Shown: positions 3,198 to 43,171, numbered from the stretch's first letter. The stretch is 43,171 nt of DNA from PVC group bacterium (GCA_043804695.1 JAZDIV010000023.1:1-43171); one strand, 5' to 3'. Notes: a model not told the origin generated them from the letters alone. Program-made: numbers and translations.

Positions 3198-3767
3198 CTA
3201 TACCTCCGGGGCCGGTTCCAGTCCGGCCCCTAATCTCTTTCGTATCGTATTCAAGGCCCCGGTCAGCAGGCTGCTGACCGTCCCTATCGATTTTCCCATC
3301 ACCCGGCCGATCTCCCGGTAGGTCAACTCATCGTTGAACTTGAGATGGCAGGCCTCCCGCTGGTCAACCGGAAGTTCGTTCAGCACCGCCAGCACCAGGC
3401 GGCGGGACTCCTCCCGTTCGGCCTGCGCCGCAGGCCCGGGCCGCTGACTGGGGAGACGGCTGAGCTGCTCTTCATGTAACGGCTGCATGCGTCCCTCCTT
3501 CTTCCGGACGTCGAACGCCCGGTTCCGGCAGACCCGGTAGAGCCAGGCCGGCATGCGGTCCCGCACTTTTGTCCGGTCGGCCCGGCAAAGCTTGAGGAAG
3601 GCATCCTGGACAACGTCCCGGGCGCTCTCGAGATCACCGGTTATCCCGAACGTGTACCGGATCAGGGCTTGCTCGTAATCCTGGAGCATTGCGCGGATCC
3701 AGGCGGCTTTACTGAGTCTGTCGTCAGGTTCGGTCACGTACGGTTTCTCCAAAGTTGGGGCGCCCAT
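3198..3767 (-). CDS. ECF-type RNA polymerase sigma factor
   Basis: Region 2 (ARDVVQDAFLKL, AWLYRVCRNRAFD) and region 4 (LPVDQRE, LTYREIG, SIGTV). Abuts the vWA gene. Confidence 0.93.
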   Translation of the reverse strand: MGAPTLEKPYVTEPDDRLSKAAWIRAMLQDYEQALIRYTFGITGDLESARDVVQDAFLKLCRADRTKVRDRMPAWLYRVCRNRAFDVRKKEGRMQPLHEEQLSRLPSQRPGPAAQAEREESRRLVLAVLNELPVDQREACHLKFNDELTYREIGRVMGKSIGTVSSLLTGALNTIRKRLGAGLEPAPEV

Positions 3768-8902: not shown

Positions 8903-9664
8903 CTACTTGGCCGGACGGCCGCCCGACGGGAGAGGCAGCCGCTGGCTTTTTTCCAGCAATTCGCTGACAACCGGCGCCATCTCCTTCCGGGCGGCCAGTT
9001 GTCTGAGAGCGGAGATGATGATCGCCTTGTAAAACCAGTCCACTTCCGAACTGTTGACCAGGTTCACCAGGGCCGCGGCCGATTCTTCAACCGGGGTGTG
9101 GGCCAGATCCCAGATGGCCGCCTGACGCATCTGGTCCGGTTGATCCGGGTCATTGAAGATTTTCAGCAGCGGCTCGACGACCCGCCTGTCCTCGATGTAT
9201 CCCAGCATCTGCATCGCCAGCAGGCGATGGTCCGCATCTCCCGTGCCGGTCTGGCTCAGGATATAGCTCTGATACCGGGAATAATTATAATCGAAACGGC
9301 AGAGCGCTTGCGCCGCCCGCAGCTTCAGCCCGGGGGCAGCTGTCTCCTGCCAGATCTTTTCGATTTCGGGCGCCGCCGGCCGATAACGGATGACGGCCAG
9401 GATTTCGATCACATTCTCCTTTTCTCCGGCGGGAGATGAGGCGAGGGCCTGAAGGAGAGCGGGGCCGGCCTGCTCTCCCATTTTGGCCAGCACGGCCTTG
9501 GCCCGGATCCGGGCGGCCGGGTCGGCTCCTTTCAGATCACCGATCAGGGTACCGAGATCAGGGGCTTTCTTTTCAGGAGCGGGCTCATCGGCCAACGGTG
9601 CGGAAACGGCAGAAACAACAGTTAAAAGGGCAATCGCCGCGGCGACTGAGATAATCATTCTCAT
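8903..9664 (-). CDS. Secreted HEAT-repeat protein
   Basis: Signal peptide followed by HEAT-like units (RIRAKAVLAKMG, RLLAMQMLG..EDRRVVEPL, RQAAIWDL). Start uncertain (9664-9712). Confidence 0.8.
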   Translation of the reverse strand: MRMIISVAAAIALLTVVSAVSAPLADEPAPEKKAPDLGTLIGDLKGADPAARIRAKAVLAKMGEQAGPALLQALASSPAGEKENVIEILAVIRYRPAAPEIEKIWQETAAPGLKLRAAQALCRFDYNYSRYQSYILSQTGTGDADHRLLAMQMLGYIEDRRVVEPLLKIFNDPDQPDQMRQAAIWDLAHTPVEESAAALVNLVNSSEVDWFYKAIIISALRQLAARKEMAPVVSELLEKSQRLPLPSGGRPAK

Positions 9665-11478: not shown

Positions 11479-11484
11479 GGTATT

Positions 11485-11680
11485 AATTAGCGCCTTCGGC
11501 GCTACTTAATATTGGACCCCGATTGATTCAATCGGGGTCTGTTGGTTAACTATAATATTTCTACCGAGGCAATCCTATAAAAAAGTCTTATAACCGCAGC
11601 CAACATTTTACCTCTGAAGAACGCGGGATCTGTAGAATGAAAGCTGTTCAACTATTATTTTTCACAGAAAAATAATATTA
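11485..11680. repeat. ~200-bp structured intergenic element, copy 1
   Basis: Close to 28583-28808 over the first ~125 bp and to the reverse complement of 27429-27633. Three hairpins plus a TGTTGG/CCAACA long-range pairing. Confidence 0.8.
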
Positions 11681-12222: not shown

Positions 12223-12389
12223 GAGGCTGTCCGGTAAACCCTAAAATGTCATTGCGAGCCCCGAAGGGGCGAAGCAATCTATTTTTTCATTCACAACCAC
12301 CTCTTATCCAAAATGATGAGATTGCTTCGTCGCTGCGCTCCTCGCAATGACCTCTAAAATGCCTAAAATCTGAATTATCGGACAGCCTC
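12223..12389. mobile_element. 167-bp MITE (IS1182-like ends), copy 1
   Basis: TIRs GAGGCTGTCCG/CGGACAGCCTC and 4-bp TSD TTCA (12219-22, 12390-93). Inserted in the loop of GGCAGCC-TTCA-GGCTGCC. Inverted copy at 32084-32274. Confidence 0.85.
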
Positions 12390-12630
12390 TTCAGGCTGCC
12401 ATAATATGGCGACCTGAAGGTCGCCGCTACAAAGTTGCGCCGCAGGCGCTAATTTATGTTTTAAACCAAGACTATCATGATTACAGCGAGGCAATACCGG
12501 TAATTTAAAATAGTCCTGCAATATTGCTTCTCTGCTTGCACATTCTTATTTTTCCGTAGGGAAAATAAGATTATTATACCTTCATGAAGACGGATTATAA
12601 CACAATCAAAATACAGGGGGAACAGTTAGA

Positions 12631-14490: not shown

Positions 14491-14510
14491 GAAAAGTTGC
14501 GCCGAAGGCG

Positions 14511-14846
14511 CTACTTTATTTCTTCCCCCAGCCAGTCGAGATACTCTCGGCTGCCGCCGCTGACGGGGAGAGCGACGATCTCGGGGACCTCGTAGCGGTG
14601 GATTTTCTTCACGGCCCCGATCAGACCGTTCAGCTTTTTCCCGCGGGTCTTGGCGACCAGGAGAAATTCCTCCGCCTGGTCGATCTTTCCCTCCCACCGG
14701 AAATAGGACTCGCCCCGGGGGAAGATGCTGACGCAGGCGGCAAGACGCTCCTCGAGCAGTGTCAGGGCGATCGTGCGCGCCTCTTCCCGGTCCGGGCTGG
14801 TCATCAGGACGACGATGTATGGATTATCTTCCGGCTCATTCATCAT
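14511..14846 (-). CDS. cutA: Divalent-cation tolerance protein CutA
   Basis: LLEERLAACV, SYFRWEGKI, HRYEVPEIVALP, YLDW. Confidence 0.95.
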   Translation of the reverse strand: MMNEPEDNPYIVVLMTSPDREEARTIALTLLEERLAACVSIFPRGESYFRWEGKIDQAEEFLLVAKTRGKKLNGLIGAVKKIHRYEVPEIVALPVSGGSREYLDWLGEEIK

Positions 14847-15202: not shown

Positions 15203-15218
15203 GAGTCTGCTCCCTTCT

Positions 15219-15322
15219 AAATTAGCGCCTCCGGCGCTAATTTAGATAATCACACCTTGCTGAAACAAAATTATTGTTATCCCGACGGATGTCGGGAAAA
15301 TTCCGAAGCAACAAGTTAGTAT
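15219..15322. repeat. Hairpin-to-AAAATTCCGAAGCA intergenic element (related copies at 15394-15449 and 24835-25048)
   Basis: Shared modules AAATTAGC-hairpin-GCTAATTT, AATCACA.CT.GCTGAAA.AAAA and TTGTTATCCCGACGG..GTCGGGAAAATTCCGAAGCA. Confidence 0.75.
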
Positions 15323-15505
15323 CAGGGGTCATCATAGAGCACTATTTTTGATTGTCAAGTTTACAGAGGTCCGGTTATGCTTGATCGTTCAATAAAATAG
15401 CGCCTTCGGCGCTCTTTTAGTTGAAATTCCGAAGCAGCAAGGTAATATCCCATAACCGCGCTCCAAAGTTTAAAATAGAGGCACTAATAATCCTGGGGTA
15501 ATGGA

Positions 15506-28579: not shown

Positions 28580-28582
28580 GAT

Positions 28583-28808
28583 AAATTAGCGCCTTCGGCG
28601 CTACTTTATATTGGCCCCCCCGACTGATTCAGTCGGGGGGGCTGTTGGTTAACAAAAATATTTTCACCGGGGCAATACTATAAAAAAGCCTTATAACCTC
28701 AGCCAACATTTGCCCTAAAGAAGATAATTTATGTATCGGCTTCAGATATACCATTCTTATTTTTTCGCCCCGCCCCGAAGCATTAATCGGGGCAGAAAAA
28801 ATAAGATT
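28583..28808. repeat. ~200-bp structured intergenic element, copy 3
   Basis: Aligns to 11485-11680. The second hairpin shows compensatory changes (GATTGATTCAATC vs GACTGATTCAGTC). Confidence 0.8.
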
Positions 28809-29821: not shown

Positions 29822-30007
29822 CTTTGTTCTCCTTCCCAAGGTCTTTTCATTGCCGTTCCTTTCCGGATACGGCTTCCCATTATATAACAACCCCTCCGAT
29901 TCATTTCAATATTTTTCGCTGACCTTTTTTCATCCCTTGACAAAAACCCGGTAGTTCATAGATTATAAACTTGAAATAAAATTTTCGCCGAAGGCGACAA
30001 TTTTAAA

Positions 30008-30091
30008 GCCGAAGTGGTGGAACTGGCAGACACGCATGGTTCAGGGCCATGTGAGGGCAACCTCTTGGGGGTTCGAATCCCCCCTTCGGCA
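30008..30091 (+). tRNA. tRNA-Leu(CAG)
   Basis: Acceptor GCCGAAG/CTTCGGC+A. Anticodon stem CATGG/CCATG with loop TTCAGGG. Long variable arm and GTTCGAATC T-loop. CCA not encoded. Confidence 0.96.
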
Positions 30092-30104: not shown

Positions 30105-30261
30105 TTATTTCATCCGGGAGAGGCGGGCGAAGGCCCGCCTCTTTTCATAATAATCCACGCGGCTCTTGTTGAGCAGCTCTTCCAGGATGGAGATTGATTG
30201 GTCATAATTCTCCCGGTCGACCGGATAGGGATGGTCATCTTTCCCCCCGTGGGCGAAGCTG
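30105..30261 (-). pseudogene. 3'-terminal fragment of a DUF763-family gene
   Basis: SFAHGGKDDHPYPVDRENYDQSISILEELLNKSRVDYYEKRRAFARLSRMK*. About 88% identical (manual count) to 40741-40893. Confidence 0.85.
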
Positions 30262-30745: not shown

Positions 30746-31921
30746 ATAGGGGTGGGGAGGATCGGTTGTTTACCCGGTCCCCCCTCCCTCCGAACCGGAC
30801 GTGCGGATCTCCCGCATTCGGCTCTCCAGTGTCTTGAACTGTTTGAGACTTTTCTTGATTGGCCATCTGTAGCCTCGCTCAAAGTGATAGCCCAAGAAAT
30901 CGAATCCTCCTCTCTGCTCGACGTCTACAATTCGCGTCTTCTCAGGGTGTAGCTTCAGTCCAGCTTCTTTTACCCAGGCAGTTATCTGGTTGAGCGCCCG
31001 TCGGGCCTCTTCCTCACTGCGACACAAAATCACAAAGTCGTCGGCATACCGAATCATCTCAAAACCCAGCCTGGTCATTATATGATCAAGCGGATTGAGA
31101 TAGATATTTGCCAGCAAAGGGCTGATTACTGCTCCTTGCGGCGTCCCCTGACCCGGTCCCCAACCAGTAAGATCTGATAGAATACCTTGATTCAGAAAGG
31201 ATTCAATCAATGCCAGAACCCCTCCGTCGGCTATCTTGTCTCGCAGGCATTCCATCAGTCGATCATGCGGAATCATATCGAAGTAACTTCTGATGTCCGC
31301 ATCGACGACCCAGGTGTAACCGGCATGCAAAAGGTGACTCACCCTCCGCAACGCGTCCTTACACCCCCGGCCCGGACGAAACCCATAACTATGCTCCGAG
31401 AAACCTTGCTCGAAGATCGGCTCGACAACGTTCTTGACCGCACCCTGAACTATCCGATCCCGGATAGTTGGTATCCCTAAAGGGCGCTCTTCTTTCGACC
31501 CCGGCTTTCTTATTTGCTTTCGCCGGATTCCTTGGGGCTTATAGGTGTTGTCCCTCAGCCCTTTCTCCAGCCGATTCAGGTTCACATCCAGTTGCCGCTC
31601 GAATTGTTCAACCGTAACTCGATTGATGACGGCAGCTCCCCGGTTGCGTTTAGTCTTGCTCTTAATAATAACACGCTATCCCTCACCGCGACGGACGTTT
31701 CGACTCTTCTCTTGTGGTCGAAATCAGACTTCACCATTGGGGTGCAGGCTCGTCAACATGTCACGCCGAATCAGGTTCGTCATCCTACGGACTGGTTATT
31801 CGCCTCCAGTTGCTTCCCACCTTGCCTCACGGCAACGCAGTTACTTTCAGCTACGGGGCCGGAGAGCGTGTACCCCGAAGAGGACTTTCACCTCTCTGGT
31901 TCCTTGTGCTTTCAGGCGCAC
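30746..31921 (-). mobile_element. Internally deleted group II intron (AGC-triad domain V, not IIC)
   Basis: 5' GTGCG at 31921. Domain I motifs (GGTGAAAGTCC, AACTGCGTTGCCGTGAGGCAAGG). Domain V GAGCCGAATGCGGGAGATCCGCACGTCCGGTTC. Domain VI ends CCCCTAT at 30746. Confidence 0.92.
30770..31655 (-). pseudogene. ltrA: Group II intron reverse transcriptase, N-terminus and maturase/thumb domain deleted
   Basis: RT0 remnant NRGAAVINRVT, RPLGIPTIRDR, SYGFRPG, GTPQGAVISPLLANIYL, RYADD, FDFLGY. The frame runs into domain V about 18 codons after FDFLGY. Confidence 0.9.
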
Positions 31922-32083
31922 ACCCCCATGACCTTGGTCATGGGTGAATCAGTTCACCAGCTAAAACCTGTCCTCTCCCTCTCCCCCCTCACCCTTTCCC
32001 CTCCCCCAGTCTCCGCCCCGATTGCTTCAATCGGGGCGAAGCAAGGGGGGTAAGGATAGCCCGGGCTCTCTGTCAGCAGTCGA

Positions 32084-32274
32084 GAGGCTGCCCGATAATT
32101 TGGATTTTAGGCATTTTAGAGGTCATTGCGAGGAGCGCAGCGACGAAGCAATCTCATCATTTTGGATAAGAGGTGGTTATGAATGAGAAAATAGATTGCT
32201 TCGCCCCCGAGCTTGTACTGAGCGTAGTCGAAGTGGGGCTCACAATGACATTTCAGGGTTTACCGGACAGCCTC
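32084..32274. mobile_element. 191-bp MITE (IS1182-like ends), copy 2, inverted relative to 12223-12389
   Basis: TIRs GAGGCTGCCCG/CGGACAGCCTC and 4-bp TSD TCGA (32080-83, 32275-78). 24 bp longer than copy 1 because of an insert containing CTGAGCGTAGTCGAAG. Confidence 0.85.
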
Positions 32275-33598: not shown

Positions 33599-33735
33599 CT
33601 ACAGGTAATCCGGCAGATTCTCTCTGATCTGGGTGCCGGTGAAACGGAGGACCGACCAGCCCTGGCCGGCGAGTTCATTGTTTATTTCCCGGGCCCGGGA
33701 AATAAAAGGCCAGATAGCGGATAGTCCTGACGAGT
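33599..33735 (-). pseudogene. Internally deleted DUF559 (Vsr-like) endonuclease remnant
   Basis: RTIRYLAFYFP joined through a 26-bp perfect palindrome to NNELAGQGWSVLRFTGTQI, a DUF559-type C-terminal motif. Confidence 0.6.
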
Positions 33736-33800
33736 GATTTTTCAACTGTCAAGATGAAAGATCTGTTCACCAGTGGGTTCCCTACCGGACATATCTTCCT

Positions 33801-33844
33801 GCTGGAATATACAAACAGAACTTCGGTATAATCAATCGTTGGAC
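33801..33844 (+). other. attI-like recombination site C
   Basis: GCTGGAATATACAAACAGAACTTCG-GTATAAT-CAATC-GTTGGAC (7-bp L box, 5-bp spacer, GTT R box). The 16-mer AGAACTTCGGTATAAT is identical to site A. Followed by RBS and ATG. Confidence 0.65.
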
Positions 33845-33862
33845 CGCGGAAAGGAGAGCTAA

Positions 33863-34290
33863 ATGCAAGAGTTATCCCTTCTCTCACAGATCAGCATGTA
33901 CGTGCTGTTGGCATTGATGGGTCTGTTCGCCCTGCTCCTATGGGGCTGTCAGGTGATGATCCTCCGGGGCAAGGCGTTCAACAATCCTGATGGCTCGACC
34001 GATGACTGGCACGAGCAGAAGACTCACTACGGCATTGCCGTCGCCGATGTCTTTGTGGCTTGTCCGGCCAACATAATCGGAATCGTGCTCGTGTTTGTTT
34101 ATCCACGCTGGGGATATTATCTGCTCGCCCTGGTTAGTTTTTGGTGGGTCTGGGCTAACGTGATGACCACGGCAACCAGTCTTCGATTCTACAAGCCGAG
34201 GATCAACCCTCTGATGTGATTCATCGGATATCCCTTCGGGGGGCTGCTGGGGCTGGCGTACATTGCGTGGACAGTCGTTATTAGTCAGTC
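33863..34290 (+). pseudogene. Membrane-protein gene cassette with a premature TGA at 34217
   Basis: AGGAG RBS and several TM helices. The hydrophobic frame continues past TGA (FIGYPFGGLLGLAYIAWTVV). A REP pair follows at 34311-34413. Confidence 0.7.
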
Positions 34291-34515
34291 CATAATTGTA
34301 TGGACATGTCCATTGCGAGGAGCGAAGCGACGAAGCAATCTCAACTCTATGCACAGCAAGAGATTGCTTCCCGCCACGCTTTGCTCGCGGCTTCGGCTGG
34401 CGCTCGCAATGACCGCAATCGTTGATGTAAATACTACAACGGTCGGATTAACAACTTTGACATCATTTACTTCCCGTGACGCTTTACGGGCGGACCGGGG
34501 CGGCGGGGGGCGCCC

Positions 34516-34572
34516 GCCCAACCCCCGCTGGAGCCTTCGCCGGTCCCGTCGAGGCTCAGCGCCACGTTCGGA
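34516..34572 (+). other. attC site
   Basis: R'' GCCCAAC, L'' CGCTG(G)AGCC pairing with L' GGCTCAGCG leaving one extrahelical base, R' GTTCGGA. Confidence 0.8.
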
Positions 34573-34617
34573 GCAAGGCAAAATTCAGCGTGCGCGCACA
34601 GGAAAGGAGATGAACGA

Positions 34618-35379
34618 ATGAAAATCCTTGTATTGAACGGCACCTATCGTCCCGATGGAACGACCACCGAACTCGCCCGGTCATTCATGGAAGGAGCCAG
34701 GGCCGGCGGCGCGGAAGTTGATATGATTATGCTCCGTGATCGAACCATCGGATACTGCACCAACTGCCTTACATGTTATAGTTTTACAGGTGAAGGCATA
34801 TCTCCCTGCAGCCTGAAAGACGATATGGATGAGATCATCAACCGAATCGTTGAAGCGGACGGCGTCCTTTTCGCCTCTCCGGTACATAATGGGTTTGTGA
34901 CCGGCTTGATGACGGTCTTCTGGGAGCGTCTGTCCTGGCGGGTGGGACGTCCGGGAGGTCCGCTCTTCAAGTGCATGAGCATCAAATCGCGCGTTCATCA
35001 CAAAACTCGGGCACTGGGCGCGATCTCCAGCGTCGGCGGTATGCCCGCACGGTTAAGAAAGTTTTGCGATGACGGGACGCCCTGGCTGAAAAGCAATTCC
35101 CGTTTGATGCTTCACGGGCAATGGATCGGGGACATTTACGCCGGCGCGGATCTCGAACACATGCCGGAGAGCAAACAGGATTGGCAAAGGCTTTTCTTTT
35201 TGCGGCGTTTAAGCGCACGGCAGCGGCGGCAAGCATATGCACTGGGCGTGAAAATGGTCCAGGCCATCCAATCCGGTCGCCTGAGCCCCTTCACGATGGA
35301 GAAAATGCTCCACCCGGCAGTACGATGGGTTATGGAACTCATTTTTACCATCAGCCACCCCTATCGAGTCGCCGGGTAA
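34618..35379 (+). CDS. Flavodoxin-family / NADPH-dependent FMN reductase-like protein (gene cassette)
   Basis: MKILVLNGTYRPDGTT, CTNCLTC...CSLKDDM (Isf-like Cys cluster), ADGVLFASPVH. AAGGAG RBS. Confidence 0.88.
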   Translation: MKILVLNGTYRPDGTTTELARSFMEGARAGGAEVDMIMLRDRTIGYCTNCLTCYSFTGEGISPCSLKDDMDEIINRIVEADGVLFASPVHNGFVTGLMTVFWERLSWRVGRPGGPLFKCMSIKSRVHHKTRALGAISSVGGMPARLRKFCDDGTPWLKSNSRLMLHGQWIGDIYAGADLEHMPESKQDWQRLFFLRRLSARQRRQAYALGVKMVQAIQSGRLSPFTMEKMLHPAVRWVMELIFTISHPYRVAG

Positions 35380-35394
35380 CACGGCAAATAGTGG

Positions 35395-35415
35395 TGCGAA
35401 CCAGGGGCTGGAGCT
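35395..35415 (+). other. Truncated attC (R'' and L'' half only)
   Basis: TGCGAAC-CAGGG-GCTGGAGC just after the stop codon. R'' is complementary to the cassette's GTTCGGA at 6/7. Right half absent. Confidence 0.55.
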
Positions 35416-35467
35416 CCTCTGGGAGTATTTATCCCGTCAGAGAATTACGAATCAGCGATTGATGAAA

Positions 35468-35911
35468 TCAATCAGCGAAAAATCGCGCCGCGGTGGGGGC
35501 GCTCAAGATCATGACCTGGGCCCGGTTGAATTGCTTGCGAAACGCCTCGATTATCTCCTGCACCGCCTTGTCGACGGCCGGGTCTTTGGGGTGTACCACG
35601 GCGACCACCCAGGTGGACTGCCGTTCAATCCGGCCGTCTTCATGGGCCATCTGGCCATAGGCATCATAAACGGTCAAGCCTTTGGGGAAACGGGGCGTGA
35701 TCACCGTGTCCATAAACTCCTCCCATGCCCCCCGGGAAATCTCCTGGCCGCCCGGGATGTCGCGGCCGAAATAAATCTCGGTTTTAATCCATTCCGGAGC
35801 GGCGGCCGGCCCGGCGGCGGGTTTTTCCGCCGCCCGGCACAATTCCGCCGCGCCGCCGATCAGTCCGGCCATGAGTCCGGCGGCGATGAATGACCAAGTC
35901 CATCTTTTCAT
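35468..35911 (-). CDS. DUF3574-family secreted protein
   Basis: Signal peptide, TEIYFGR, WEEFMDTVITPRFPKGLTVYDAYGQ, FRKQF. GGAGG RBS. Confidence 0.85.
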   Translation of the reverse strand: MKRWTWSFIAAGLMAGLIGGAAELCRAAEKPAAGPAAAPEWIKTEIYFGRDIPGGQEISRGAWEEFMDTVITPRFPKGLTVYDAYGQMAHEDGRIERQSTWVVAVVHPKDPAVDKAVQEIIEAFRKQFNRAQVMILSAPTAARFFAD

Positions 35912-36046
35912 GGAATCCTCCTTTCCCCTGAACGGGGCGCGGCCCGCAGAGTGACCACACACACATATATATTGCCTTCCGGCAGGCGGATCCGACCCGG
36001 GATTGGGAATTCTACTTCTCCCGCTCGCGGTTCTCCTCTTTTTTCA

Positions 36047-36685
36047 TCAGCTCGTCAATTTTCTTTTTCTCCCACTCCTCGCCCAGAAATTTACCCCGAA
36101 TGGTAAAAACTCGGACAGCGTGAATCTCGATCCTTTCCGGCTCAGGTAATTACTAACCTTCCTGCTCCGGGATATTTTACACAGCAGATCGGAGATGATC
36201 GGCACCCTCCCCCAACTGGCTGTTCCCTCAAGCAGGGAAACCGCGAATTTTCCCGCTTTTTTCAGCCCGAATTCCTTTTTCCTCTCATTCTTTTCATGAT
36301 TAATTTTGCCGGGGAGAAAGTTATTGGGCATAACGATCTCTTTCGCCCCCAGCGGCCGATACCCTTTTCCGGTTAAAAGCTTCCTCAAGGGACCCACTAT
36401 CCCGCCGGAAAAGGCGGCCAGGGTATCGACCATGAAGACTCCGGTTGACTGGGCGGGGGGTAATTGTTCAATAAATTCCCAGACCAGCGGATAAGTGGAT
36501 TGTGCCGCCACCGGGAAGGCTAGGCCGATGGTGCGGGCGGTATTAATCCGGGCGGGATCACTCTTCTCTATTTTTAAAAGCCGGGTGGCGGCCCCATTCT
36601 CCCGAAAAACGTCTGCCATCTTTTTTACCACCAGAAGAGTGTTGCCGGTCCCTGAGAAATAGTAAATGTCGATATCCTTGATCAT
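36047..36685 (-). pseudogene. EFR1-family flavodoxin-ferredoxin, C-terminal 4Fe-4S domain missing
   Basis: IYYFSGTGNT, IGLAFPV, MPNNF. After GSRFTL the expected CxxCxxC..CP domain is replaced by unrelated sequence. Confidence 0.75.
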
Positions 36686-36708
36686 TGTGTTTCAGCTGTC
36701 TTTTTAAT

Positions 36709-36798
36709 GATGTGATACCAGCGCTCTTTACGGATAATCGGCCAGAGCTCCTTCCGGGGAACGATCCCTACCAGCGCCGGGTTATCGCCTTGTTTCAT
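36709..36798 (-). pseudogene. N-terminal fragment of a DUF559-type nuclease gene (72-bp direct repeat with 37943-38014)
   Basis: MKQGDNPALVGIVPRKELWPIIRKERWYHI. 69/72 nt identical to the second copy. Confidence 0.65.
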
Positions 36799-36935
36799 GG
36801 TTCTGAAGTATTACTTTCGGGTCAACGATTTTGTAATTTTCCTGGATGGCTAATAATGCTTCTTTGGTAATGATGCAAGTGATTTTAAACTGTCAAGAGG
36901 AAAGATCCTCATTTCATGCATTTCACTTTTCCATT

Positions 36936-37784
36936 TCACTGATTTTTCTTGAGGGCATATTTTACCGCTGCTTCTGCGTGTATCTTAGTGGTGTCAAAAA
37001 CCGGTACACTTACGTCTTCCTGCTTAACCAACAACGGGATTTCGGTGCATCCCAGGATCACTCCTTCCGCGCCCTCCTCATTCACAAGACGATTAATAAT
37101 CTGAACATACCCTTCTTTTGATTTATCGTAAAACTTTCCGGCGCATAATTCATCAAAGATAACCGCATTGATGTAATCCCGTTCGGCTTCATTGGGGACA
37201 ACTACTTTTAGCCCGAATTTTTTCTCTAATCGGTCCCGGTAAAAATCCTGCTCCATGGTGTACTTCGTACCCAGCAGCGCGATAGTCTTTATCCCACTAT
37301 TATTCACTGCTTCGGCGGTTGCGTCGGCGATGTGAATAACCGGGATCTTAACATTTTCCGCAATAATATCGGCAGTTGAGTTCATGGTATTAGAGCATAT
37401 TATGATAAAATCCGCGCCTCCCCGCTGGAGCCTCTGTGCGGCGTCAATCATCGTTTCTCTTAAAGGCCCCCAGTTTCCCTGATCTGCCAGCCGCTCCTGT
37501 TTTGAAAAATCACCGAATTCAATGGAAAACATCAGAATCTTGGCGGAATGCAATCCGCCAAGTTCATCCATGACCATCTCGTTCATTAAGCGGTAATATT
37601 CTGCTGTTGACACCCAGCTTACCCCTCCGATTACGCCGATGGTTTTCATCTGCGGCTCTGCCGCGCTAACCGCGCTTATATCATCCTTTTCTATATCCGC
37701 AGGATGAGGGGCTGCGCATCCGCTTAGCGCAATCAGTGCCAAAAACACAGCTGTGAAACAAAATAACCCAAACCTTTTTTTCAT
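36936..37784 (-). CDS. Asp/Glu racemase family (YgeA/RacX-like) protein with lipoprotein signal
   Basis: KTIGVIGGVSW.ST, GGLHSA, ICSNTMN, LLGTKYTM, ILGCTEIPLL, FDTT.IHA. N-terminal MKKR, hydrophobic stretch, LSGC. AAAGGAG RBS. Confidence 0.9.
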   Translation of the reverse strand: MKKRFGLFCFTAVFLALIALSGCAAPHPADIEKDDISAVSAAEPQMKTIGVIGGVSWVSTAEYYRLMNEMVMDELGGLHSAKILMFSIEFGDFSKQERLADQGNWGPLRETMIDAAQRLQRGGADFIIICSNTMNSTADIIAENVKIPVIHIADATAEAVNNSGIKTIALLGTKYTMEQDFYRDRLEKKFGLKVVVPNEAERDYINAVIFDELCAGKFYDKSKEGYVQIINRLVNEEGAEGVILGCTEIPLLVKQEDVSVPVFDTTKIHAEAAVKYALKKNQ

Positions 37785-37854
37785 CTTTTCTCCTTTCTGC
37801 TTATAATTGTATAATTGACCATATCCAATATCTCTTACCTCTTCAAATAATGCC

Positions 37855-38023
37855 ATGCCGGATTATCAAAATCAAAGACGGCCGGGAAATACCAGGCCGG
37901 ATAGCGGATAGTCTTGATGGTGCGGGGAGCGGAGGCAACCGGGATGTGATATCAGCGCTCTTTACGGATAATCGACCACAGCTCCTTCCGGGGAACGATC
38001 CCTACCAGCGCCGGTTTGTCCAT
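37855..38023 (-). pseudogene. Second, longer N-terminal fragment of the DUF559-type nuclease gene with an in-frame stop
   Basis: MDKPALVGIVPRKELWSIIRKER*YHIPVASAPRTIKTIRYPAWYFPAVF. Confidence 0.65.
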
Positions 38024-38295
38024 GAGTTTTTGCTGATTTTGGGCGCGGAGTGGCTGTAAGTTATTGCTGTTTACTACATTCCACTAAAGTGGTGCATGAT
38101 GCACCACTTTCCATTTAAGCGTTTCGATCGGTTGAATTCAGGTTTGGTTTTCTTAGAAGCCCGGTTTTGAGGCCAAAATTTTACCCCGCGATGAACAAAG
38201 TTCATTTTACGGGGTGGGGTTTTAAGTCCTATTATGGGGGGGGTATTTTTAGATAACTTATTAATATTCAATTTGTTGGGTAGGTCCGACCCAGT

Positions 38296-38952
38296 TTATT
38301 CATCCGGACAGCTCTCGATCACCTGCACCACGTTGGGAAGCGCCCGATCCTCATGATTATCCGGGAAGACCTCCCTTAATCCCCCGGGCCGGTCGAGGAC
38401 GAGGACGCTGGAGAAGCCACCGTCCAGGTTGATTGCGTCGGAGATGTCCGGGAAGTGCTCCCGGAGAAAGTCCGCCGCCTCGGCGAAGGACATGCCGAAG
38501 GCGTGGATCGGGTCCCTCCCCTTAATGATCACCAGGTAGACGAAGCGTCCCTCTCCGTCCGTTCCCACAATCGTCCGCGGGTGGCGCTCGGCGATGATCT
38601 GGAAATCAAGACTCTCTTCCAGATAGGCGTTCTTCCCCTTTTCGATGAGGGGCCAGGCATAATAGGGCCAGGAGAGGAGGGCACAGCGCACCCCGGAGGG
38701 GGCCTTTGCTCCCACCTCCTCTTTCTTGAGATACATCTCCCGCACAAAGGCCCTCCTTTCCCCGGAGTTCTCCTCTATTCCGAAGCAGAACTGGGACCAG
38801 TCGTGGATAAGCAGGTGGGCCGGATCGGCGAAGGAGCGCACCATACCGGCACTGATGTAGCCGGAGACGTTGCCGTTGACGGTGACCAGACAGCGGGCAG
38901 AAGGAGCGAGCGCTTCATTTCTCATGCGGTGGTAGGTAATCGCCGTGAGCAT
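38296..38952 (-). CDS. Phosphodiester glycosidase (NAGPA-like) domain protein, possibly 5'-truncated
   Basis: RHPRTIVG, LVIIKGR, GMSFAEAADFL, AINLDGGFSS. Confidence 0.75.
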   Translation of the reverse strand: MLTAITYHRMRNEALAPSARCLVTVNGNVSGYISAGMVRSFADPAHLLIHDWSQFCFGIEENSGERRAFVREMYLKKEEVGAKAPSGVRCALLSWPYYAWPLIEKGKNAYLEESLDFQIIAERHPRTIVGTDGEGRFVYLVIIKGRDPIHAFGMSFAEAADFLREHFPDISDAINLDGGFSSVLVLDRPGGLREVFPDNHEDRALPNVVQVIESCPDE

Positions 38953-39083
38953 CCCCTCCTTAACAAATAACGCATAGCGTGTTTTGTTAAATAAGGAGAC
39001 CCGGCGACGGGCGGAATGGCTGGTTTTGAAAAGCGAACAAAGAGGAAGTTAAAAAGTCAAGGCCGTCCCCCTATCCCTTATTC

Positions 39084-39555
39084 CTACAAGATACTGATGA
39101 TATATTTGATAAGCTTGACCAGACCATATATGAATAAGGCGATCGCTCCAATATATATCCACCCTACCATACGTCCTTCCCTTGAATGCCTGTGCTGGTT
39201 CAGCCAATTCGCTGTTCCCCCTTTTCGGCGATAAAGGGATTTCCTTTTTTTCCTTTTCTTCTTTGGAGGCTTACGTACCTGAGGAGTAACAGGATGATAA
39301 TCTGTCCTGGGCTTTTCGATTTTTCGTGGGGTCGTTGTAATTTTCGGCTTACTTGATCTGCGTTTTGGGCGGTCTTTTATCGGGGAAGTGGAAGATCTTA
39401 CAGATGCTTTACCAACATCCCTGATCGGTTTTATTACCGGAGCTTCTTTTGCTGGAAGAACAGCGCTACTTTTATCCTGTCTTTTAATTTCTGTTACGGG
39501 CTTTTTATTGAGAGGAGACGCGGATGAACCGCAAGTCACGCGGCGTGTAGCTCAT
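39084..39555 (-). pseudogene. Degenerate cassette gene (Lys/Pro-rich region and C-terminal TM helix)
   Basis: GTTCGGC-AGGAAGAAAA-ATG start at 39555 stops after 16 codons. The main frame 39084-39539 is shifted. No downstream attC seen. Confidence 0.55.
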
Positions 39556-39565
39556 TTTTCTTCCT

Positions 39566-39635
39566 GCCGAACGCCCCACCTAACGCGCAAATGAAGCGCG
39601 GCTTTTCACTTGTCGTGTTCAGGTGGTTGTTGGGG
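39566..39635 (-). other. attC site
   Basis: R'' CCCCAAC, L'' CCACCT(G)AAC pairing with L' GTTAGGTGG, R' GTTCGGC. GTCCCCAAC is the exact complement of the cassette 5' junction GTTGGGGAC at 40297. Confidence 0.88.
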
Positions 39636-40028
39636 ACAGATCAACTTCACAACCGGAAAGTAAGTGCTCAGTCGTTTTGTGTCACGAGTGAGAAGCGGGA
39701 TTCCTGCCGCTTCGGCGTGACCGCCAATGAAAAAGTCCGGAAGGATCGAAGTCTTGTTTCCTTTCCGGGTCTTGTAGAGTCCGAACGCTCTGGCCGCCCG
39801 GAAAAGACCTTGTCGGGGAATCTCCTGATAGGTCAGACCAAAGCGCCTGACCACATCATCGACAAACTCGATCGAAGGGCTACCGAAACACAGCTCTGCG
39901 TAGATTATGGGATTGATTATCAGCCCGGCATCGCGGTTGCTCTCAAGATGCGCAATGGACCACTCTGCCCACCGAGGATCATCTGTAAGGACATCAGCGA
40001 GCACGTTGGTGTCAACCAAAACGGGCAT
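39606..40028 (-). CDS. vapC: PIN-domain (VapC-type) toxin
   Basis: VLVDTNVLAD, IYAEL, LPDFFIGGHA, LLTRD. TGATG-coupled to the antitoxin. Confidence 0.9.
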   Translation of the reverse strand: MPVLVDTNVLADVLTDDPRWAEWSIAHLESNRDAGLIINPIIYAELCFGSPSIEFVDDVVRRFGLTYQEIPRQGLFRAARAFGLYKTRKGNKTSILPDFFIGGHAEAAGIPLLTRDTKRLSTYFPVVKLICPQQPPEHDK

Positions 40029-40252
40029 CAGTCGCCTCTGGTCTCGCGCATCCACTGTTGAGTCGTGAGTCTTCCCTTCAGAACGCCCCGCAAGGCCGAG
40101 AACCGCGCGTCTGTCCCCCGGTCCCGCTCCTGCTTGACCAAGACGACATTTCCGCCTGCAATGCGGAAATCCACTTCAGTGTGTGGCGCAATTCCCAGGT
40201 AGTCCCGGATGCGCGCCGGTATCGTAACCTGTCCTTTTGTCGTCACTTTCAT
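40028..40252 (-). CDS. AbrB/MazE/SpoVT-family antitoxin
   Basis: MKVTTKGQVTIPARIRDYLGI.P.TEVDF. Confidence 0.92.
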   Translation of the reverse strand: MKVTTKGQVTIPARIRDYLGIAPHTEVDFRIAGGNVVLVKQERDRGTDARFSALRGVLKGRLTTQQWMRETRGD

Positions 40253-40258
40253 GGTATT

Positions 40259-40288
40259 ACTATGCCACGTATTACTTTCTCGTGTCAA
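40259..40288 (-). promoter_or_regulatory. Cassette-internal sigma70 promoter of the TA operon, probably leaderless
   Basis: TTGACA-N18-CATAGT with an upstream TG, ending 6 nt before the ATG. Tandem AGTAATAC boxes are a possible operator. Confidence 0.6.
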
Positions 40289-40290
40289 GT

Positions 40291-40335
40291 CCCCAACTAT
40301 ATTATACCGAAGTTCTTCTTTTATATTTCAGCAAA
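40291..40335 (-). other. attI-like recombination site A
   Basis: GCTGAAATATAAAAGAAGAACTTCGGTATAAT-ATA-GTTGGGG. Homology with copy B stops at the GTT, where different cassettes begin. Confidence 0.7.
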
Positions 40336-40389
40336 TAGACTTCAACTGGTCAAGGCGAGTTTTGGCGGGTGTTGTATACTTACCCCCCT

Positions 40390-40676
40390 GGTTCTCTTCC
40401 ATTTTGTGTGGGTAGTTCTCCTCCACCGGGCTTGTCCCGGTGGGGATATGATTGGTAACTAACCCATCAGCGAAAAACAACAATGGTTACCACCGGGCTT
40501 GCCCCGGTGGAACCGTAACTTACTAAAATTAAGATAGTTAAGTCATCGCTCCACCGGGATAAACCCGGTGGTGGCGCTGAAGATATAGTCGATATTAGTA
40601 GTCAATCATGATTCCACCGGGACCAGCCCGGTGGTGATTCTAAATGTGGTTTACCCACACAAAATGGAAAAGAACC
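40390..40676. mobile_element. 287-bp MITE with ISL3-like ends carrying four palindromes
   Basis: 25-bp TIRs (24/25) GGTTCTYTTCCATTTTGTGTGGGTA. 8-bp TSD ACCCCCCT/ACCCCCTT. CCACCGGG-N5-CCCGGTGG at 40423, 40490, 40551 and 40614. Confidence 0.88.
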
Positions 40677-40733
40677 ACCCCCTTCTATGAGTAGATACAT
40701 AGCATCCAGCGAGGAAAAGAGGTAAGCTCCTGG

Positions 40734-41262
40734 TTAAGACTTCATCCGGGCGAGGCGGGCAAAGGCCCGCCTCTTTTCATAATAATCCACCCGGCTCTTG
40801 TTGAGCAGCCCTTCCAGGATGGCGATGGACCGGTCATAGTTCTCCCGGTCGACCGGGTAGGGAACTCCGTCCTTCCCGCCGTGCGCGAAGCTGTAACGGG
40901 CTGGATCCCTAGTGCTGGTCCGGGTCCCGTAGATCAATTCCGAGAGTAGGTTCAGGGCCCGGAGGCTTTTCGGTCCCAGTCCTTCCACCAGGAGAGCATC
41001 CTCAAACGAGCCCGGCGGGCGTTCCTCCAGGCGATGGAACAGGTTCACCATCCGGGCTGAGACGAAATCGGAGGGGAGGATGTGGTGCCGCGACGGCAGC
41101 TCCAGGGAAGCTACCTTCCGCAACTCACTGACCGTTTCCCGGGGGCTCAGCCGGGCCACCCGGACAATCCCGGAGCGGGCGCCCGCGGACTCTTTGGCCA
41201 CCAGGTTGAGCACCGCGCCCCGCCGGGCGCAGCAGACCGCCCGGTGAGAATCGGAGACGAAA
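40734..41262 (-). pseudogene. DUF763-family gene, 5'-truncated
   Basis: FVSDSHRAV, LNLVAKES, GLGPKSLRALNLLSELIYG, DPARYSFAHGGKDGVPYPVDR. N-terminal half absent. Confidence 0.85.
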
Positions 41263-41296
41263 CATGAATGGGGTAAAATTATGTTGATATGGGAGC

Positions 41297-41359
41297 ATGA
41301 CCAGGCCACTGAGAATCCAGTACCCCGGCGCTTGTTATCATGTGACCTACCGGGGAAAC
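41297..41359 (+). pseudogene. N-terminal fragment of a REP-associated (Y1/RAYT) tyrosine transposase
   Basis: GGGAG RBS then MTRPLRIQYPGACYHVTYRGN. Homology ends at the AAC that is the GTT of the adjacent attC. Confidence 0.8.
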
Positions 41360-41464
41360 GACCGAATTAACTCGCCACCCGACGAGACCACACAAGCAAG
41401 CCGAAGCCACACAAGGTTGATGAGAGGCACGCTGAGGGCGGTCGGGTTGAATGAGTTGTTGGAT
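41353..41464 (-). other. attC site (long), R' fused to the RAYT fragment
   Basis: R'' ATCCAAC, L'' ATT(C)AACCCG, L' CGAGTTAAT, then TCGGTC-GTT. Confidence 0.75.
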
Positions 41465-41504
41465 GCAGCTTTCCAAGTCCACTGACTCACCGTCATTAGA
41501 TTGC

Positions 41505-41810
41505 CTATGACCTTAAAAACTCTCTTCCCGCTTGAGTGATTCTCCAGTCTTCAACAGCAGGATCATGCGGATATCTGTAGCCTGCATTAACAGCCTTGCG
41601 ATTGACATACTCACGCAGGGACGCTTTGCCCTGCTCTGGAAGCATAGCACAGTTCATGCGTTGCTCAACCGCTGCATATAGGTCTGACATTTGAGCCGTG
41701 CCACCATTATTAACGATGGCTTCTAAAACAATTCTCATTTGGGCATTTGAAGACAGCCCAGCTTCAACTCCCGTCATTGCCCGAACTTCTTCCATAACCT
41801 TCACCTCCAT
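41505..41810 (-). CDS. Small winged-helix-like protein (cassette gene)
   Basis: IVLEAIVNNGGTA...WRITQAGREFL resembles a Mrr-N-like wHTH. Followed by attC. Confidence 0.55.
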   Translation of the reverse strand: MEVKVMEEVRAMTGVEAGLSSNAQMRIVLEAIVNNGGTAQMSDLYAAVEQRMNCAMLPEQGKASLREYVNRKAVNAGYRYPHDPAVEDWRITQAGREFLRS

Positions 41811-42204
41811 AGTTCACAAACCATACGGAATAGTCCTTCCGCGTTAGGTATTCTGGGGATTTCTTGTCAACGCACCGGAACCATGAGAGCCCCATCTGGA
41901 ATATCTGGCCGTCCGAGACACGTTTAATCACGGCGATCAGATCATCCGATTCTGGATTTAAGATATCCAGGAGGTCAAACTTGTCCGTGTAGGACGGGTT
42001 TGTTTTCTTCAGTTCCTCGTATTCATTTTGATCCCAGCCCGCCATCACGTAAGGTTCTTCCCACGGGAAGTCTTCGATTCCTGTCACGAGCACGGGAAGG
42101 GTCAGATGATTCTTGAGGTATGCACGGTAGCGCCAGACATTTTTGGACGTCCGTCCGTTGTCGTCACCGAGCATGGCGACAATTCGCTTTTCCGATGCTG
42201 TCAT
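41764..42204 (-). CDS. Hypothetical cassette protein resembling the CcbP-like calcium-binding family
   Basis: ATG lies 9 nt after R' GTTCGCC. YLKNHLTLP..VTGIEDFPWEE and DYSVWFVNY motifs. The 3' end runs into the next gene. Confidence 0.65.
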   Translation of the reverse strand: MTASEKRIVAMLGDDNGRTSKNVWRYRAYLKNHLTLPVLVTGIEDFPWEEPYVMAGWDQNEYEELKKTNPSYTDKFDLLDILNPESDDLIAVIKRVSDGQIFQMGLSWFRCVDKKSPEYLTRKDYSVWFVNYGGEGYGRSSGNDGS

Positions 42205-42213
42205 TTTGTTTCC

Positions 42214-42272
42214 GGCGAACGTTACTCCTCAGGCGCGGCCTTCAGGATGTTGCCTGCAGGAGATGGTTCTAA
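42214..42272 (-). other. attC site
   Basis: R'' TTAGAAC, L'' CTCCT(G)CAGG pairing with L' CCTGAGGAG, R' GTTCGCC. R'' is complementary to the cassette junction GTTCGAA at 6/7. Confidence 0.85.
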
Positions 42273-42280
42273 CGTCCGCT

Positions 42281-42514
42281 TCAGACCGCGTGTGCGAGGG
42301 GGTGCTTCGCACGCTCGGTCTGGATTCGATGCATGGCTTCATCGTCGAAGAACCTAGCACCGCAAGCACGGCACCTAAAATGCCGCAGGCTCTTCATGGC
42401 GAAGCCGTCGTCAAGGCGGCAGTTCCCCACCACCTGGGCCATCTGCATCGCACTGCACTCTGGACACGGCAAAGGTTCAGAGATCCGTGCTTTTCTTTGA
42501 GGAGATGAGGACAT
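42281..42514 (-). CDS. YgiT/MqsA-type zinc-finger protein (putative antitoxin)
   Basis: CPEC...CRACGARFFDDEAMHRI. Overlaps the upstream gene. Confidence 0.75.
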   Translation of the reverse strand: MSSSPQRKARISEPLPCPECSAMQMAQVVGNCRLDDGFAMKSLRHFRCRACGARFFDDEAMHRIQTERAKHPLAHAV

Positions 42515-42781
42515 AGAAAACGTCAACTCCTTTCTTCGTCAGTATCTTGCCTTTGGTGTAGATATCGAGACCGTCAAACGTGAGGCCTTTGATAATGTAA
42601 AGCGTCTCCGCGTTTCTCGTCCGGGGATTGCGTGACCGGAGAACTTTGAAAATGGACGGAGCGTTCAGGATCGATTCGTAAACCAGCTCCGGCGTGAGCG
42701 ATTCGGCCGCCATCTCGCCCTCCGCGTGAATAGCACGTGCCGTGCGATCACCAATCGCTTTATCCGTACGAGAATATCCAT
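42477..42781 (-). pseudogene. Putative toxin partner, frameshifted near 42725
   Basis: AGGAG RBS then MDILVRIKRLVIARHVLFT in one frame. AEGEMAAESLTPELVYESI...FYVLISSKKS continues in another. TTGAAC-N17-TAATAT promoter at 42827-42799. Confidence 0.65.
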
Positions 42782-42851
42782 GACTTCTCCTGAGCAAAAT
42801 ATTACGTCAATGCGACCGTGGGTTCAAGATCGGGGATCAAGCATCTCCTCG

Positions 42852-42902
42852 TTCGAACTATACATTATATACATTATGCCAAAGTTCTTCTTTTATTTCA
42901 GC
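42852..42902 (-). other. attI-like recombination site B (dif-like)
   Basis: GCTGAAATAAAAGAAGAACTTTGGCATAATGT-ATATAAT-GTATA-GTTCGAA. Part of a ~150-bp segment (to 43009) duplicated at 40295-40725. Confidence 0.7.
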
Positions 42903-43030
42903 AAAAAGATTACGACAGGTCAAGACGAGTTTTGGCGGGTGTTGTATACTTACCCCCTTGGTTCTCTTCTATGAGTAGATACATAGCATCCAGCGAGGAA
43001 AAGAGGTAAAATATTTTTTGCTTTACAAAA

Positions 43031-43171
43031 AAAACGGTGAGCCTCGTCCCGGATCCGCATCAGGAGCTGGAGCGCCGGGGAGCGGGAACGGAGGGCGGCC
43101 GGATTCTTGCGGCCGGGCAGGTACACCCGGTCCCGGACCACCCGGCCCGATGTCAGTCGTTTCTCCTTGGC
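43031..43171 (-). pseudogene. uvrC: UvrC RNase H-like domain segment, truncated after DEAHRF and running off the window edge
   Basis: AKEK...[12 protein letters not shown]...[17 protein letters not shown] followed by unrelated AT-rich sequence. The HhH domain is missing. Confidence 0.8.

Follow-up and report, generated by a model that had tools for sequence, protein, structure and literature searches.

Probable orphan integron platforms with an attI-like landing site in a bacterium of the PVC group

The module, its copies and the genes behind them

The stretch of DNA analysed here, referred to as the window, is the entire contig C23 (43,171 bases) of genome G000, a metagenome-assembled genome of a PVC group bacterium that comprises 155 contigs and 2.97 Mb and is 88% complete. 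Positions 1-30,000 carry ordinary housekeeping genes. From a tRNA at 30008-30091 onward, the contig is a mosaic of repeats, fragments of genes and small gene sets, in which three copies, C, A and B, of a non-coding module of ~100 nt (165 nt in A and B) are embedded. Each copy ends at a GTT triplet, behind which lies a different set of genes, and none has an integron integrase gene (intI) beside it. An initial annotation, made from the sequence alone, had described three related sites as small integrons without an integrase, and the sites are present at the positions it gave. Our analysis suggests that A, B and C are probably copies of an orphan integron platform, that is, an attI-type landing site with a promoter and captured cassettes.

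Module copy C (33760..33838, +) consists of a promoter-like part and an attI-like 3ʹ end. The core of copy A lies at 40297..40402 (-). Copy B (42858..43030, -) comprises the core, a 44-nt box (42966-43009) and a 21-nt spacer that reaches to a breakpoint in uvrC. The junction GTTs are at 33838-33840 (+) in C, 40297-40295 (-) in A and 42858-42856 (-) in B, and the G of each crossover GTT (33838, 40297 and 42858, respectively) is the last base of the module. A and B are 88% alike over ~105 nt and also share the 44-nt box at 100% identity; in unit A this outer box is at 40682..40725 (-), and it marks the shared outer boundary of the copied unit. The core and the box of A are separated by an insertion of ~280 bp (40403..40681) that has inverted ends of 26 nt and contains four CCACCGGG...CCCGGTGG hairpins, each of the form CCACCGGG-N5-7-CCCGGTGG, with a period of ~65 nt. 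The same hairpin was also found near an intI locus of another genome (G011, L041).

How widely does the module occur? The 16-mer AGAACTTYGGYATAAT, allowing at most one mismatch, has three occurrences in the 2.97-Mb assembly, all within the window, and the backwards control has none. BLAST identified additional copies on G000 contigs C46 and C122, both in ordinary gene contexts, and four copies (G1a-G1d), all in the same orientation, on a 220-kb contig of G001, the sister genome from the same genus. The C122 copy is diverged and consists of the 5ʹ half only. The module family has at least nine copies in these two genomes, which represent two species of one genus, and is larger than the initial annotation saw; no copy is beside an intI. 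A pattern scan of one genome per species found the module core in G001 only, and a first scan of metagenomes gave no module match. A looser metagenome scan returned 37 loci, none extending beyond 34 nt, and these were rejected as chance matches. Upstream of the G001 modules there is a repeated reverse-strand “fragment” with no Pfam match and no homologue among longer proteins; it is probably non-coding.

The 3ʹ boundary of the module is sharp. In six of the eight full copies, likeness stops at the GTT, and mean ungapped identity among these six falls from 61% over the 12 nt before the triplet to 36% over the 12 nt, and 30% over the 30 nt, after it. This bears out the earlier claim that A and B diverge at that point. 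The GTT is 3-5 nt past a TATAAT-like hexamer, and 14 nt past it in B because a 9-nt tandem duplication precedes the GTT there. B and C had been read as having the geometry of attI1, with an L box and a 5-bp spacer ahead of the GTT. The arrangement AAT-N5-GTT is indeed found in five of the six GTT-bearing copies, but the AAT is part of the -10-like TATAAT, and the reading as an L box is not established.

As had been proposed, a different cassette lies behind each GTT. Behind C, cassette C1 (33839..34566, +) contains a 118-aa membrane-like open reading frame (ORF; 33863-34219), a palindrome that resembles repetitive extragenic palindromic (REP) elements (34311-34366) and an attC-like site (34516-34572); sites homologous to it are present in G001 and on two other G000 contigs, C73 and C122. 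Cassette C2 (34567..35422, +) contains an FMN-reductase-like gene (34618-35379; FMN_red family in Pfam) and the 5ʹ half of a C1-type attC (35395-35422). Behind A, cassette A1 (39572..40296, -) encodes an AbrB/MazE-type antitoxin (40028-40288) and a PIN/VapC toxin (39606-40055), identified by Pfam and NCBIfam, and has an attC-like site (39566-39635) whose homologue in G001 sits behind a different toxin-antitoxin pair. The cassette-like unit A2 (38958..39571, -) has a 151-aa ORF (39084-39539) and a 35-nt mini-palindrome, AAC-N5-stem-N5-GTT (38958-38992). Behind B, cassette B1 (42220..42857, -) contains a 106-aa ORF (42477-42797), an 81-aa zinc-ribbon ORF (42281-42526) with weak MqsA/zinc-ribbon matches, and an attC-like site (42214-42272); the two ORFs are probably a toxin-antitoxin pair. 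Cassette B2 (41353..42219, -) contains two ORFs, of 146 and 101 aa, that belong to no known family, and an attC-like site (41353-41464). Array B therefore has two attC-like sites, ~750 nt apart, without an intI; that of B2 passes a covariance model and that of B1 is recognised by geometry alone.

The module has promoter-like features that point toward these genes. Most copies have the hexamers TTGACC-17-TGAAAT, with TATAAT next to the crossover; a promoter scan recognised only the hexamers of B (CTGAAA-17-CATAAT, with TG). At C, G1c and G1d, the first ORF begins 20-25 nt past the junction (22 nt at C), with only a ribosome-binding site in between. Since the first ORF is so near the junction in these three cases, its transcription would have to come from the module. 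A1 has its own TTGACA promoter according to the scan, and B1 likewise by reading. Toxin-antitoxin cassettes usually have their own promoter.

The same locus in the sister genome gives an indication of how these units arose. On G001:C11, the tRNA, a full DUF763 gene and uvrC lie within ~2 kb, and there is no integron at the locus. Since the sister genome keeps this empty tRNA-DUF763-uvrC locus, the units in G000 are insertions. Unit B (module, two cassettes and a RayT-like fragment) has taken the place of ~950 bp that comprised the final 200 nt of uvrC together with the 5ʹ half of DUF763, and unit A begins a few bases past the DUF763 stop codon. A and B have the same outermost nucleotide but abut different sequences, uvrC in the case of B and the DUF763 stop in the case of A. 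The identical 44-nt box, with the same end nucleotide next to different flanks, therefore suggests that the unit was already beheaded when it was copied. The breakpoints in uvrC, DUF763 and the RayT-like fragment are all on a GTT (3/3), which would fit integrase-type exchanges at secondary sites, of the attG type discussed below.

DUF763 survives in the window only as fragments: a 3ʹ half (40734..41263, -; profile positions 178-319 in Pfam) that is cut at a GTT, and a second 3ʹ piece at 30105-30261. The uvrC gene (43031..43171, -; Pfam) is truncated by unit B ~200 nt ahead of its natural end. It is the sole copy in the assembly and is split over two contigs; the rest is at C107:7817-9288, and the C-terminal part is gone. 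The truncated uvrC frame runs into the module for 27 codons. The RayT/IS200-like N-terminal fragment (41297..41365, +), which the last attC of array B truncates at a GTT, was identified by reading and has no hidden Markov model (HMM) match. The initial annotation had listed DUF559, DUF763 and uvrC fragments where an intI would be expected. Pfam supports DUF763 and UvrC, whereas the DUF559-like piece of 25 residues (33599-33690, -) has no HMM match and was recognised by reading only.

Relationship to integron recombination sites

True attI junctions in related genomes were identified by requiring 7/7 complementarity to the R'' box of the first attC. Three such junctions were verified: those of G001:C7 and G002:C49, which belong to long integrases, and that of G008:C304, which belongs to a short integrase with a complete match to TIGR02249, the integron integrase family (463.7 bits). 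The attI of G008 is also found next to the complete intI of G007:C75 and next to the G001:C26 intI, which has one TAG stop. The 3ʹ 35 nt of the module align with the G008:C304 attI, and local alignments end precisely at the GTT in both sequences. Likeness is significant for four of the six copies: G1a (26/35 ungapped, z 6.1, 0/300 shuffles), C46 (z 4.9, 0/300 shuffles), A (z 3.7, p 0.003) and C (24/35, z 3.3, p 0.007); it is not significant for B and G1d. In contrast, none of the 12 comparisons with the two long-class attI sites was significant. Furthermore, when the 69,451 GTT sites of G000 were ranked by how well the 32 nt ahead of the triplet match the G008 attI without gaps, site C was third (21/32), and the only higher-ranked sites were two canonical attI copies on C53 (30/32 and 23/32). 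The motif is therefore found, in diverged form, upstream of a complete intI, by way of its homology to the G008-type attI. The earlier proposal that a small attI module had been copied is upheld in both respects: the module is attI-like by homology to a verified attI, and the empty sister locus and shared outer boundary indicate that it was copied.

The attI sites of short-integrase integrons (G008:C304, G007:C75 and G001:C26) have much in common with the module. Both are double-stranded, non-hairpin sites that end in G|TT at the start of the first cassette, with 24-26/35 nt identical in register with the crossover, and both have an AT-rich -10-like hexamer just upstream and a promoter directed toward the cassettes. 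The module differs in having no divergent intI, in being present in at least nine copies in two genomes rather than once per integron, in its upstream 60-130 nt, which are unrelated to the canonical intI-attI spacer, and in its cassettes, which have atypical attC sites. We also considered the module as an attC. Its seven predicted pairs show no covariation, and its fold z is near 0 on both strands; hence, the module is not an attC.

Across 15 genomes, the short-class attI is present at 12 places in 7 genomes, and orphan attI platforms are common in the family. In G000, there are two integrase-less copies of the canonical short-class platform at C53:193-420 and 3435-3720 (L091, -). Each follows REP hairpins and a copy of the DUF2784 3ʹ end (the same gene in both cases), both have ~20 intI 5ʹ codons by reading, and different cassettes lie behind each. 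The first has 9/9 junction complementarity with a canonical attC, and the second aligns with the G001:C26 region into the first intI codons. The beginning of C53 is similar to the end of C106, and the second copy may therefore be the head of the C106 array. Orphan canonical attI copies are also present in G002, G003, G004 and G007, all without a complete intI. At six places outside G000 (L106-L111: G004:C9, C35 and C48; G007:C234; G002:C111; G003:C397), the orphan attI is 40-90 nt long and lies directly behind unrelated housekeeping genes. Four of these (L106, L107, L109 and L111) head canonical arrays, with orientation checked; there are only weak or partial attC matches behind the G002:C111 site, and L108 has no attC match in the 190 bases before the contig end. 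A tblastn search with two integrases at seven loci (these six and C53) detected an intI remnant only in G002:C111. G004, a 94% complete assembly, has three orphan attI sites and no intI match at E 1e-40 or better.

Four complete attC-like sites and one half site had been claimed in the window, and we read them likewise: 39566-39635 (-), 42214-42272 (-), 41353-41464 (-) and 34516-34572 (+), with the half site at 35395-35422. All four complete sites have the geometry AAC-N4-6-stem with one bulged base...stem-N4-6-GTT. A strict geometry scan gave 35 matches in the genome, among them C1 and B1, against 8 in the reversed control; a relaxed scan added A1 and B2. Geometry scores were 8/8 for C1 and B1 (one bulge each) and 7/8 for A1. 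We also searched with two covariance models trained exclusively on sites from outside the window: R1, built from the eight attC sites of the G001:C7 integron, each with perfect chain complementarity, and R2, built from 27 attC sites of four genomes. The best R2 matches in the window were C1 (E 0.0066) and B2 (E 0.011), both at the predicted sites, and R1 also matched B2 (E 0.034). By this measure, two of the four sites proposed earlier are recovered. A third R2 match, at 9200-9272, looks false. There is no proper attC in A2, where the mini-palindrome scores E 0.081 with R1 and 1.3 with R2.

Considering all module copies, a same-strand attC-like site is found at the end of the gene block behind eight of nine, by reading, homology or geometry. 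Homologues of the A1- and C1-type sites follow unrelated genes, both in G001 and on contigs C73 and C122 of G000. Families of attC sites behave in this way. Many module-linked sites have a constant inverse core, GCCCAAC, whereas canonical attC sites of the same genomes have variable inverse cores; the two are separate site populations.

Integration by an integron integrase leaves a footprint, in that the 5ʹ end of a cassette is complementary to its own R'' box. In the true integron of G001:C7, 8/8 cassettes show this at 7/7 positions. For the window, the strings described in the initial annotation are as it gave them: GTTGGGGAC / GTCCCCAAC (junction/R'') at A, 9/9; TTCGAAC / TTAGAAC at B, 6/7; and GTCCAAC / GCCCAAC at C, 6/7. 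However, only A is clearly above chance. The perfect match at A is meaningful because the homologous A1-type attC in G001 has a different R''. The half site of C2 has R'' TGCGAAC where TCCGAAC is expected (6/7), and A2 has no R'' match to the expected GCCGAAC.

The absence of an intI beside A, B and C, which had also been claimed, is confirmed by the Pfam search of the ORFs of the region, which detected no integrase, and by TIGR02249. Elsewhere in G000 there are canonical cassette arrays (on C106, C53 and other contigs) and two damaged integrase genes. C32:273-1178 is a long-class intI with a clean internal deletion that leaves the frame open, ~270 nt from the contig start; TIGR02249 matches it with 183.9 bits over positions 2-110 and 248-315, with 111-247 missing. 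C99 has a short intI fragment. No intI-bearing contig of G001 has a copy of the module, and intI genes above the family cut-off of 265 bits are present in five of eight family relatives. The suggestion that cassettes were captured by an IntI acting in trans is not established, as this 88%-complete assembly has only an internally deleted intI of another class.

Interpretation and alternative explanations

How might these units have formed? We propose that the ~100-nt module combines outward-facing promoter-like hexamers with a 3ʹ-terminal double-stranded recombination site of the attI type. Circular cassettes would be joined to the G|TT of the module by an integron integrase that is encoded elsewhere and is now missing or unassembled, leaving cassette/attC units behind each copy, and the module promoter would drive those first cassettes that lack a promoter of their own. 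The beheaded platform would also be copied to new places, here the ancestral tRNA-DUF763-uvrC locus, probably with recombination at GTT triplets.

Several observations weigh against this interpretation. With respect to the enzyme, TIGR02249 has seven matches over the G000 assembly, none above the cut-off and none on the window contig; integrases of the cognate class are present in relatives only, and the one in G001 has a TAG stop. With respect to the landing site, the likeness to the verified attI is limited to 24-26 of 35 nt, two of the eight full copies (G1b and G1c) lack the GTT, and a first blastn-short comparison of nine module copies with 16 intI loci detected only a hairpin repeat, a result that was overturned by the crossover-anchored alignment. 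The promoter scan of the region found 8 sites where 7.4 are expected, with no excess over shuffles. Complementarity at B and C is within background, because non-cognate junction/R'' pairs score alike (by hand count, they reach 3/4 variable positions in 3/12 comparisons) and the box of C1-type copies is constant (4/4 copies that keep it have GCCCAAC, whatever the cassette start). B2 fails complementarity, with ATCCAAC or CAACAAC found where GGCGAAC is expected, and a search for R'' boxes that complement the four module junctions of G001 gave none. Lastly, the attC-like sites are not typical: A1 and B1 have no match with R1 or R2, there is no attC behind the C46 copy, and folds of the window sites are weak (z -0.7 to -2.1, with B1 at -2.1, versus -5.5 for a canonical site). 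The top-strand bulged base is G in module-linked sites (34516-34572, 39566-39635, 42214-42272 and L028:16821-16899), and C in canonical sites.

An alternative, which we consider doubtful, is opportunistic insertion at attG-type sites. According to this explanation, a mobile or duplicated strong promoter happens to have a GTT that suits IntI, selection has kept cassettes next to the promoter, and the likeness to attI is a convergence of AT-rich sequences. IntI is known to insert cassettes at genomic GWT sites, with hotspots that recombine roughly as well as attI and with expression near resident promoters (10.1101/2022.09.11.507474), and the other breakpoints at our locus are on GTTs that are outside any att site. 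However, the likeness of the module to attI is anchored on its right at the crossover and is specific to one class, with 0/12 significant comparisons for the other class and site C third among 69,451 sites. Moreover, the same GTT is the boundary in six of the eight full copies, whereas the attG sites described share only a few conserved bases.

It is improbable, in our view, that the module is a mosaic intergenic repeat, such as a portable promoter or leader, that is unrelated to integrases and lies amid decayed cassettes by coincidence. The ordinary gene contexts of the C46 and C122 copies are consistent with such a repeat, as are the absence of an att-like hairpin from the module and the REP-like hairpins and repeat insertion that accompany it. 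Coincidence does not readily explain the 9/9 footprint at A, the attC-like site behind eight of nine copies, the homology to a verified attI or the sharp 3ʹ boundary at the GTT.

Could A, B and C instead be three ordinary integrons, each of which lost its own intI in place? Decay of this kind is seen in the family: the C53 platforms and G004:C35 keep ~20 intI 5ʹ codons, G002:C111 has an N-terminal remnant, and the intI on C32 is deleted internally. For the window, decay in situ of three ordinary integrons is very unlikely. The tRNA, DUF763 and uvrC are adjacent in the sister genome with no integron, A and B share their outer end nucleotide against different flanks, the window contig has no TIGR02249 match, and the 44-nt box of A and B, considered as an intI 5ʹ remnant, has no significant likeness to intI 5ʹ regions (p 0.23 to 0.86). 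We attach almost no weight to an assembly or binning artefact that joined unrelated metagenome pieces, despite the 155 contigs of the genome and a region full of repeats and gene fragments, since A and B, at 88% identity, are too different to be collapsed into a single copy, synteny with G001 holds for both flanks, uvrC continues on C107, and the same architecture is present four times on the 220-kb G001 contig.

If A, B and C are orphan platforms, as we think probable, how do they relate to systems already described? The initial annotation had listed complete integrons, In0 elements and attC clusters without an integron-integrase (CALINs) as the known classes. It omitted attG insertion with the associated SALINs (lone attC sites with no integron-integrase), and delta-attI cassettes, both of which lower the novelty of the arrangement. 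CALINs were defined by Cury et al. 2016 (PMC4889954), and our units resemble them in being small cassette clusters with heterogeneous attC-like sites and no intI within reach. The CALIN definition ignores attI, whereas each of our clusters is headed by a repeated, promoter-bearing attI-like module, and two of the four attC sites pass covariance models. The attG report (10.1101/2022.09.11.507474) describes IntI-mediated insertion at genomic GWT sites, hotspots, expression from resident promoters, and SALINs. Shared features are IntI-type insertion outside a complete integron at a double-stranded G|TT, the resident promoter and the small size of the clusters; the difference is that attG sites have a GWT core but are otherwise unrelated stretches of the genome, whereas the module is conserved, multi-copy and resembles one attI class. 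Finally, delta-attI-type cassettes and attI1-ORF-attI1 units are reported to be functional with IntI1 (PMC12901181). These have in common with the module that additional attI copies, complete or partial, serve as boundaries of cassettes, and that attI can duplicate and move. They are found inside arrays of complete class 1 and class 2 integrons of clinical bacteria, whereas the modules are solitary, lack an integrase and occupy separate positions on the chromosome of an uncultured environmental bacterium. The most fitting description of the module family is orphan attI-type landing sites with a promoter, a variant of the integron-derived elements already known and distinct in being conserved, multi-copy, promoter-bearing, attI-like and without an integrase. 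Searches of the published literature, which covered texts without their supplements and of which one was spoiled by matches to “attitude”, found no description of a conserved, multi-copy, promoter-bearing, integrase-less attI-like module.

What is the significance of these orphan sites? In this family, the attI is recognisable, it outnumbers and outlives the integrase genes, and together with a promoter it heads separate small sets of cassettes. This points to integron landing sites being able to spread, and to last, in the absence of the enzyme. To our knowledge, integron surveys base their classes on intI and attC alone, since for most integrons the attI sequence is unknown. If orphan sites are still used, cassette capture would not be bound to one locus per integrase, and many “CALINs” would be working landing pads rather than debris, which bears on the origin of CALINs, an open question since 2016. 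A bolder proposal, which we put forward tentatively, is that modules combining attI with a promoter form a self-standing, proliferating layer of the integron, in which beheaded copies capture and express cassettes through an integrase acting in trans, so that an “integron” would be distributed over many loci. It may also be that the module type, together with its own attC variant (top-strand bulged G and constant GCCCAAC), belongs to a second recombinase.

Other features of the window and the sister locus

A search of the window with Rfam detected the tRNA and a group II intron, and nothing else. The intron (30756-31960, -) lies just past the tRNA and the DUF763 3ʹ fragment; it contains a reverse transcriptase ORF (30770-31585), and the Rfam domain match is at 30756-30826. 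In the sister genome, the corresponding region upstream of DUF763 (L096; G001:C11, 1700-2250) consists of the tRNA, two partial repeats of the tRNA 3ʹ end and ~eight tandem 33-nt units (CACAGACAGGAATGTCTGTGC...), followed by DUF763.

Repeats are found throughout the window. A palindromic repeat with CATTGCGAGGAGCG.AGCGACGAAGCAATCTC is present at 12266-12390, 32083-32207 and 34311-34366; complementarity between two of the copies is 96% over 125 nt, and cassette C1 contains one copy. Short repeats in the variable region pair 36709-36786 with 37943-38020, 33688-33735 with 37887-37925, and 33745-33775 with 36878-36907. One of these is a duplicated 5ʹ gene fragment, with 94% identity over 78 nt, and another is a promoter-like piece, TTGACAGTT, that points away from module C. 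AT-flanked GC hairpins, TAAATTAGCGCC-TTCG-GGCGCTAATTTA, are located behind many of the housekeeping genes, at 11482-11520, 12429-12467, 14491-14529, 15217-15255, 15392-15430, 28581-28619 and 29978-30003.

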